A stretch of DNA of 64,000 nucleotides from Escherichia coli (GTDB lineage: Bacteria; Pseudomonadota; Gammaproteobacteria; Enterobacterales; Enterobacteriaceae): the NCBI RefSeq assembly GCF_003334315.1, contig NZ_QOWR01000001.1; one strand, written 5' to 3'. The translations under genes and the position numbers were made by a program. Below the pieces are notes generated by a model. The model was given only the letters and a program-made list of their open reading frames with translations. It searched no databases and was not told where the DNA came from. Positions 45,786-46,001 of the stretch are shown here, piece by piece. How positions within the stretch are numbered: the first letter of the stretch is position 1; each line of letters opens with the position of its first letter.

Positions 45786-45880
45786 AAAAAAAAAGCCAGC
45801 ACCCGGCTGGCTAAGTAATACTGGAAGCAATGTGAGCAATGTCGTGCTTTCAGGTTCTCCGCGAGGGTCTTCCTGATCGC
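45786..45880 (-). ncRNA. ryhB: Fur-regulated small RNA RyhB
   Basis: Minus strand reads GCGATCAGGAAGACCCTCGCGGAGAACCTGAAAGCACGACATTGCTCACATTGCTTCCAGTATTACTTAGCCAGCCGGGTGCTGGCTTTTTTTTT; terminator hairpin plus U-run at 3' end. Confidence 0.88.
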
Positions 45881-45883
45881 GAG

Positions 45884-45905
45884 ACAATAATAATCATTCT
45901 CATTC
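45884..45905 (-). promoter_or_regulatory. Fur box / promoter of ryhB
   Basis: Immediately upstream of the ryhB 5' end, minus strand reads AATGAGAATGATTATTATTGTC, close to the GATAATGATAATCATTATC Fur consensus. Confidence 0.7.
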
Positions 45906-46001
45906 GCACTTGTCCAACACTTTTTGCAAAAAAATGCATTTGACTCGCATTTGAAAGTCAATGATGTTGAAAGGGACATTTACCCCAAAGAGGACAAAGG
46001 A

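Follow-up and report, generated by a model that had tools for sequence, protein, structure and literature searches.

The window, by which we mean the whole 64,000-nt (64 kb) stretch of Escherichia coli DNA analysed here, carries the small RNA gene ryhB on the minus strand at 45786..45880. Downstream of it on the same strand lies the oxidoreductase gene yhhX (44632..45669, minus strand, from the ORF list and RefSeq). On the other side the divergent gene yhhY (46002..46490, plus strand), encoding a GNAT N-acetyltransferase, stands between ryhB and an AT-rich islet of 2,677 bp (46491..49167, plus strand) that fills the interval between yhhY and ggt. A sequence-only reading had recognised RyhB here, between yhhX and yhhY and on the minus strand, and had named failure of a covariance-model search as its refutation. 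That search, run with Rfam 15 over all 64 kb, called RyhB (RF00057) above the gathering threshold at 45787-45851 on the minus strand, at 83.1 bits, the gathering score being 55 (E = 3.6e-14), and an alignment spanning the full model, positions 1-67. RF00057 was the sole family above its gathering threshold anywhere in the window.

The Rfam model is short, its 67 positions taking in only the 3′ two-thirds of RyhB, and the full gene was delimited by K-12 identity together with the RF00057 match. The ncRNA ryhB of K-12 MG1655 (b4451, NC_000913.3 3580922-3581016) corresponds to window positions 45786-45880, giving 95 nt including a U9 tail, with the transcription start at 45880 and a run of nine T at 45794-45786 at the 3′ end. 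Direct reading of the minus strand of 45500-46200 finds the RyhB sequence GCGATCAGGAAGACCCTCGCGGAGAACCTGAAAGCACGACATTGCTCACATTGCTTCCAGTATTACTTAGCCAGCCGGGTGCTGGCTTTTTTTTT. The entire yhhX-yhhY intergenic region is 100% identical among the window, MG1655 and one second strain, and the window as a whole is collinear with MG1655 3,535,117-3,599,903, at 98.3-99.9% identity over the 64 kb.

Two mechanical open reading frames overlap ryhB, one of 95 aa (45692-45979) and one of 53 aa (45726-45887). Both were rejected as coding, there being no support for either; the start of the 53-aa frame lies upstream of the ryhB transcription start. The roughly 58 nt that follow the ryhB terminator and precede the yhhX leader (45729-45786) give no alignment to E. 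albertii or to a divergent Escherichia genome, and a weak second terminator-like hairpin is found at 45763-45748.

A promoter scan places a sigma-70 promoter for ryhB at 45887..45916 on the minus strand, with 10 of 12 hexamer positions matched: a −35 element TGGACA (45916-45911), an 18-nt spacer and a −10 element TATTAT (45892-45887), with 6 nt separating the −10 from the annotated +1. It is the one promoter-like site that the consensus scan found in 45300-46500. Overlapping the −10 hexamer is a Fur box, GACAATAATAATCATTCTC (45883..45901), which covers −3 to −21 of ryhB and matches the 19-bp consensus GATAATGATAATCATTATC at 16 of 19 positions. This position over the −10 is the geometry expected of a repressor. 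The Fur-box-like sequence that had been pointed out just upstream of RyhB is thus real, and it is unique in the window: it is the single match with three or fewer mismatches in 64 kb, where shuffles lead one to expect 0.01. No second match at that threshold was found, the feoABC/nfuA region included. Those genes, feoABC (~5050-7600) and nfuA (~11740-12315), are further iron-related genes in the window, placed there by K-12 mapping. The segment first proposed for the locus, 45786-45910, takes in ryhB, its Fur box and the −10, and ends only a few bases short of the −35.

Fur binding at this operator is already in the literature. Chen et al. 2007 report a cluster of Fur sites of 25.2 bits at −15 of ryhB, confirmed by gel shift, and mention that this fragment had previously been selected in vivo by Fur titration (PMC2189734). 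With both the gel shift and the in vivo selection published, the Fur-binding experiment that had been proposed for this segment has already been carried out (PMC2189734).

The 3′ end of the gene is a Rho-independent terminator and Hfq-binding module (45786..45812, minus strand, from a terminator scan), formed by a 7-bp stem AGCCAGC/GCUGGCU, a 5-nt loop and the U9 tail; this tail has been described before, and read-through of about 20% measured for the terminator (PMC4509938). Upstream of it lies the conserved core, or seed, a single-stranded segment through which RyhB pairs with target mRNAs (RyhB nt 34-60, 45821..45847 on the minus strand, GCACGACAUUGCUCACAUUGCUUCCAG). Folded as a single sequence RyhB reaches a minimum free energy (MFE) of −24.1 kcal/mol (z = −0.67), no more stable than shuffles, as is usual when a short sRNA depends on Hfq and has to keep its seed unpaired. 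Because such a fold is uninformative for a short sRNA, we turned instead to covariation across 105 distinct homologues taken from the matches listed. In that alignment 97.8% of cells of the terminator helix are paired, and 26 cells show compensatory change on both sides, where shuffles give 2.3 ± 1.4. Three of the seven pairs show two-sided changes (e.g. A-U to C-G or G-C), and slid controls of the helix were all far worse. The covariation evidence concerns the terminator: the middle hairpin sits within the selected core and is therefore uninformative for this purpose, and the 5′ third is too divergent across genera for reliable alignment.

To gauge conservation within the species we used a 135-nt query, comprising the gene and promoter of ryhB, against 5426 complete E. 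coli genomes. It was found in 5425 of them, at 99% identity or more in 5414, always on the chromosome and with a median of one place per genome. The gene belongs to the core genome of E. coli and hardly varies within it. One clinical isolate, 23AR0151, carries a 9-nt tandem duplication inside the RyhB seed (locus L005 ~6088-6105, corresponding to window ~45830-45845), by which ACATTGCTC goes from two copies to three; it probably arose by slippage on a natural near-repeat.

Beyond E. coli the exact 27-nt core GCACGACATTGCTCACATTGCTTCCAG occurs in at least 120 stretches of DNA from three orders, covering Enterobacterales, Vibrionaceae, Aeromonas and Zobellella. Among the matches listed, the genera with the exact core include Citrobacter, Enterobacter, Yersinia, Serratia, Pantoea and Photorhabdus, and also Photobacterium, Aliivibrio, Salinivibrio, Aeromonas and Zobellella, and a genome often has two copies. 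Of 118 loci among the matches listed, 117 have a Fur-like site (five or fewer mismatches) in the 100 nt that precede the core, against a background of 7 in 2186 100-nt windows of the same loci (0.3%). The order yhhX/yhhW-ryhB-yhhY is kept in many genera (e.g. in Citrobacter, Enterobacter and E. albertii), and the divergent ryhB-yhhY layout is common to many Enterobacterales. Two RyhB copies were seen in Yersinia, Photorhabdus, Pantoea, Serratia, Hafnia and Pectobacterium (loci L007/L008, L009/L010, L028/L029, L062, L104 and others); in Salinivibrio both stand in tandem, about 300 nt apart. Where a species has two copies, just one per genome adjoins yhhY or yhhW.

Taken together, the RNA family call, identity to the reference, the operator, terminator covariation, conservation and synteny identify the locus as the chromosomal E. 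coli ryhB with its Fur operator, already known, at a probability of about 0.98. Essentially nothing speaks against this identification. It could be asked whether what we see is instead a RyhB-like relic that has decayed or no longer works, or whether a short covariance model has scored by chance, given that the 67 positions of RF00057 see only the 3′ two-thirds of the RNA and that the MFE z-score is unremarkable. We give this almost no credence: identity is 100% to an experimentally characterised K-12 gene over the full 95 nt and the promoter, which refutes it, and it sits equally badly with an E-value of 3.6e-14, with near-invariance in 5425 genomes and with a promoter, operator and terminator that are all intact and conserved.

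The RNA is expected to act through its core. The seed holds a 9-nt perfect complement, AGCAAUGUC, across the sodB AUG, and the seed-sodB pairing spans −14..+6 of sodB. A full-length RyhB-sodB calculation with duplexfold gave an unrealistically long duplex and was replaced by a seed-only one, which yields −18.0 kcal/mol, where shuffled targets give −9.2 ± 2.7 (4 of 1000). This energy is non-specific, in that among 50 gene starts in the window 5 match or beat the −18.0 of sodB; since unrelated gene starts score as sodB does, energy by itself proves nothing about targets. The feoB start has a non-specific seed score of −19.3, and the start regions of feoABC and nfuA are otherwise without notable RyhB complementarity.

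RyhB is the model case of an iron-sparing regulator that is controlled by Fur and depends on Hfq, and RNase E joins Hfq in the decay of the sodB, sdh, acn and ftn transcripts. The features of the window suggest the same course of events. When iron is plentiful, Fe2+-Fur would occupy the 19-bp operator over the −10 and block transcription of ryhB; when iron is scarce Fur would leave, and sigma-70 RNA polymerase would start at 45880 and stop at the GC-rich hairpin and U9 tail, giving an RNA of ~90-95 nt. Hfq would bind the terminator/poly-U module, while the exposed core (nt ~34-60) would pair with the translation-initiation regions of sodB, sdhCDAB, acnB and ftnA mRNAs. Such pairing is predicted to stop translation of these mRNAs for non-essential iron proteins and to trigger their decay, so sparing iron. 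For the K-12 sequence, which is identical to that of the window, it is established that Fur binds, that expression responds to iron, that Hfq is needed and that target mRNAs decay (literature cited in PMC2189734 and PMC4509938). For the strain of the window the same behaviour, including control of expression by iron and Fur, is carried over from this sequence identity and may be presumed to hold.

The islet beyond yhhY has a different history. GC content is 0.29-0.35 from ~46400 to ~49000, against ~0.50-0.54 outside the islet. Homology to E. albertii, to divergent or cryptic Escherichia, and to Citrobacter, Enterobacter and others stops at 46489/46490, the yhhY stop codon (seen in the six relatives inspected), and resumes at 49168, the ggt end, in the five relatives whose locus reaches ggt. 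In relatives without the islet yhhY is followed directly by the convergent ggt; the gap between the two genes is only ~60-66 bp in two Escherichia relatives. Neither islet DNA nor a protein homologue of YhhZ, YrhA or YrhB was found in 120 non-E. coli ryhB loci among the matches listed. Within E. coli, 3758 of the 5426 complete genomes carry 80% or more of the islet, and 4094 carry part of it. The islet is an accessory element with sharp boundaries, a later insertion between yhhY and ggt that is unrelated to ryhB. The ancestral order is yhhX-ryhB-yhhY-ggt, and the proximity of ryhB to the islet is therefore a by-product of where the islet landed.

Four islet genes lie on the plus strand. The first, yhhZ (46727-47905), encodes an Hcp and HNH-like protein: Pfam finds a T6SS_HCP domain at residues 27-139 (E = 2.5e-11) and, only weakly, a C-terminal HNH match at residues 322-343 (E = 0.013), and YhhZ has been classed as an Hcp1-family His-Me finger protein, group 32 (PMC5714182). 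Directly downstream is yrhA (47902-48396), intact here and without a Pfam match, then yrhD (48491-48646), then yrhB (48846-49130), an immunity-type gene downstream of yhhZ whose product matches Imm35 in Pfam (E = 4.6e-23). No T6SS core genes lie within the window. Judged by its domain content, "AT-rich toxin islet" seems a fair description of this segment.

Other strains show rearrangements here. In MG1655 an IS1E with a 9-bp target duplication interrupts yrhA, the site falling at about window 48283-48291; with its intact yrhA, the window derives from an E. coli other than MG1655. Some strains have IS903B or IS1 at the yhhY 3′ end or at the yhhY-yhhZ junction (e.g. LR-58-1, locus L002 2699-3667), and in EC291 (locus L004 4867-5985) IS1 takes the place of the whole islet and the yhhY C-terminus.

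These results redraw the neighbourhood that the sequence-only reading had sketched. Its distance holds, "about 600 nt" comparing with 611 nt from the ryhB start to the islet edge at 46491 (847 nt to the yhhZ ATG). RyhB does not, as it had put it, directly abut the islet, for between the two come yhhY, a core gene of 489 bp, and the divergent promoter region. The description of the segment as a small hotspot of regulatory and accessory elements applies to the islet side only: that side is variable and attracts IS elements, whereas ryhB, its promoter and yhhY are nearly invariant core. The plasticity lies on the islet side and leaves ryhB untouched.

A functional tie between operator and islet deserves weighing all the same. 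The Fur box might serve the divergent yhhY, also or instead, and read-through from yhhY might then bring the yhhZ islet under iron control as one module. The box lies ~100 nt upstream of the yhhY ATG within a 332-bp divergent intergenic region, the divergent pairing of ryhB and yhhY is kept across many Enterobacterales, yhhY appears among Fur-regulon genes in a network table (PMC2710865), and yhhY and yhhZ share a strand, 236 nt apart. Yet the operator is centred on the −10 of ryhB, and the scan returned no promoter for yhhY, that of ryhB being the only promoter-like match; we regard the proposal as unlikely. The absence of the islet in relatives would in any case make a link between operator and islet recent and incidental.

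We also sought a link in cis between ryhB and the islet through the RNA itself, by a seed screen of 50 gene starts in the window. The starts of yhhY, yhhZ, yrhA and yrhB rank 24, 19, 49 and 50 of 50 in seed complementarity; the screen gave no evidence for such a link and the idea was dropped. We found no sign of a functional connection between ryhB and the islet. That the Fur operator gates yhhY and, by read-through, the horizontally acquired yhhZ (Hcp-nuclease)/immunity islet is a long shot in our estimation. Were it true, insertion of the islet beside the operator would have put an orphan toxin module under iron-starvation control, which would be of modest interest. The reading we prefer remains a standard ryhB locus, its Fur box serving ryhB, with an independent islet nearby.

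RyhB had also been called the only non-coding RNA gene in the window. This stands at the Rfam gathering threshold and for tRNA and tmRNA, none of which ARAGORN found in the 64 kb, but K-12 annotation adds the antisense RNA asompR (b4842, 3536438-3536775, corresponding to window ~1322-1659, plus strand), opposite ompR and upstream of greB. No Rfam family exists for asompR, which is why the covariance scans missed it. A permissive Rfam scan (E ≤ 1) gave as extra ncRNAs only sub-threshold REP-like naRNA4/ES036 matches and obvious chance matches. The naRNA4/ES036 matches, of 27-40 bits and all below gathering, fall at 11079-11118, 12748-12782, 28469-28551, 56642-56726 and 62562-62599; they cross-match each other in blastn and look like REP-type extragenic palindromes.

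The correct ryhB call is good annotation without new biology, since sequence, operator, position and mechanism are as in K-12. What the analysis adds is a cleaner view of the neighbourhood, in which the 2.7-kb yhhZ-yrhB insertion is present in part of the species only and is independent of ryhB.

The nearest known system is K-12 ryhB itself (b4451; RF00057; also SraI), with which the whole gene, Fur operator, promoter, terminator and flanking genes are all shared. There is no difference within the gene, and only the strain background differs slightly; the one structural difference from MG1655 across the window is that IS1E is missing from yrhA. The islet, an element separate from ryhB, is comparable to Hcp-fused nuclease effectors with their immunity genes, YhhZ-YrhA-YrhB sharing with them the N-terminal Hcp and Imm35. 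Paralogues and orthologues of RyhB in other Gammaproteobacteria (e.g. Salmonella RfrA/RfrB, Klebsiella ryhB and ryhB-2, Yersinia RyhB1/2 and Vibrio RyhB) have the same 27-nt core with a Fur box upstream. They differ in their divergent 5′ regions and in copy number, many species having two copies at different loci while E. coli normally has one. The Enterobacterales and Aeromonas RNAs share the terminator type of E. coli ryhB, whereas those of Vibrionaceae are longer and have no terminator within 48 nt of the core. PrrF1/2 (Pseudomonas), IsrR (Staphylococcus), FsrA (Bacillus) and HrrF (Haemophilus) are, like RyhB, Fur-repressed sRNAs that mediate an iron-sparing response, but they are unrelated to it in sequence and fall outside RF00057.
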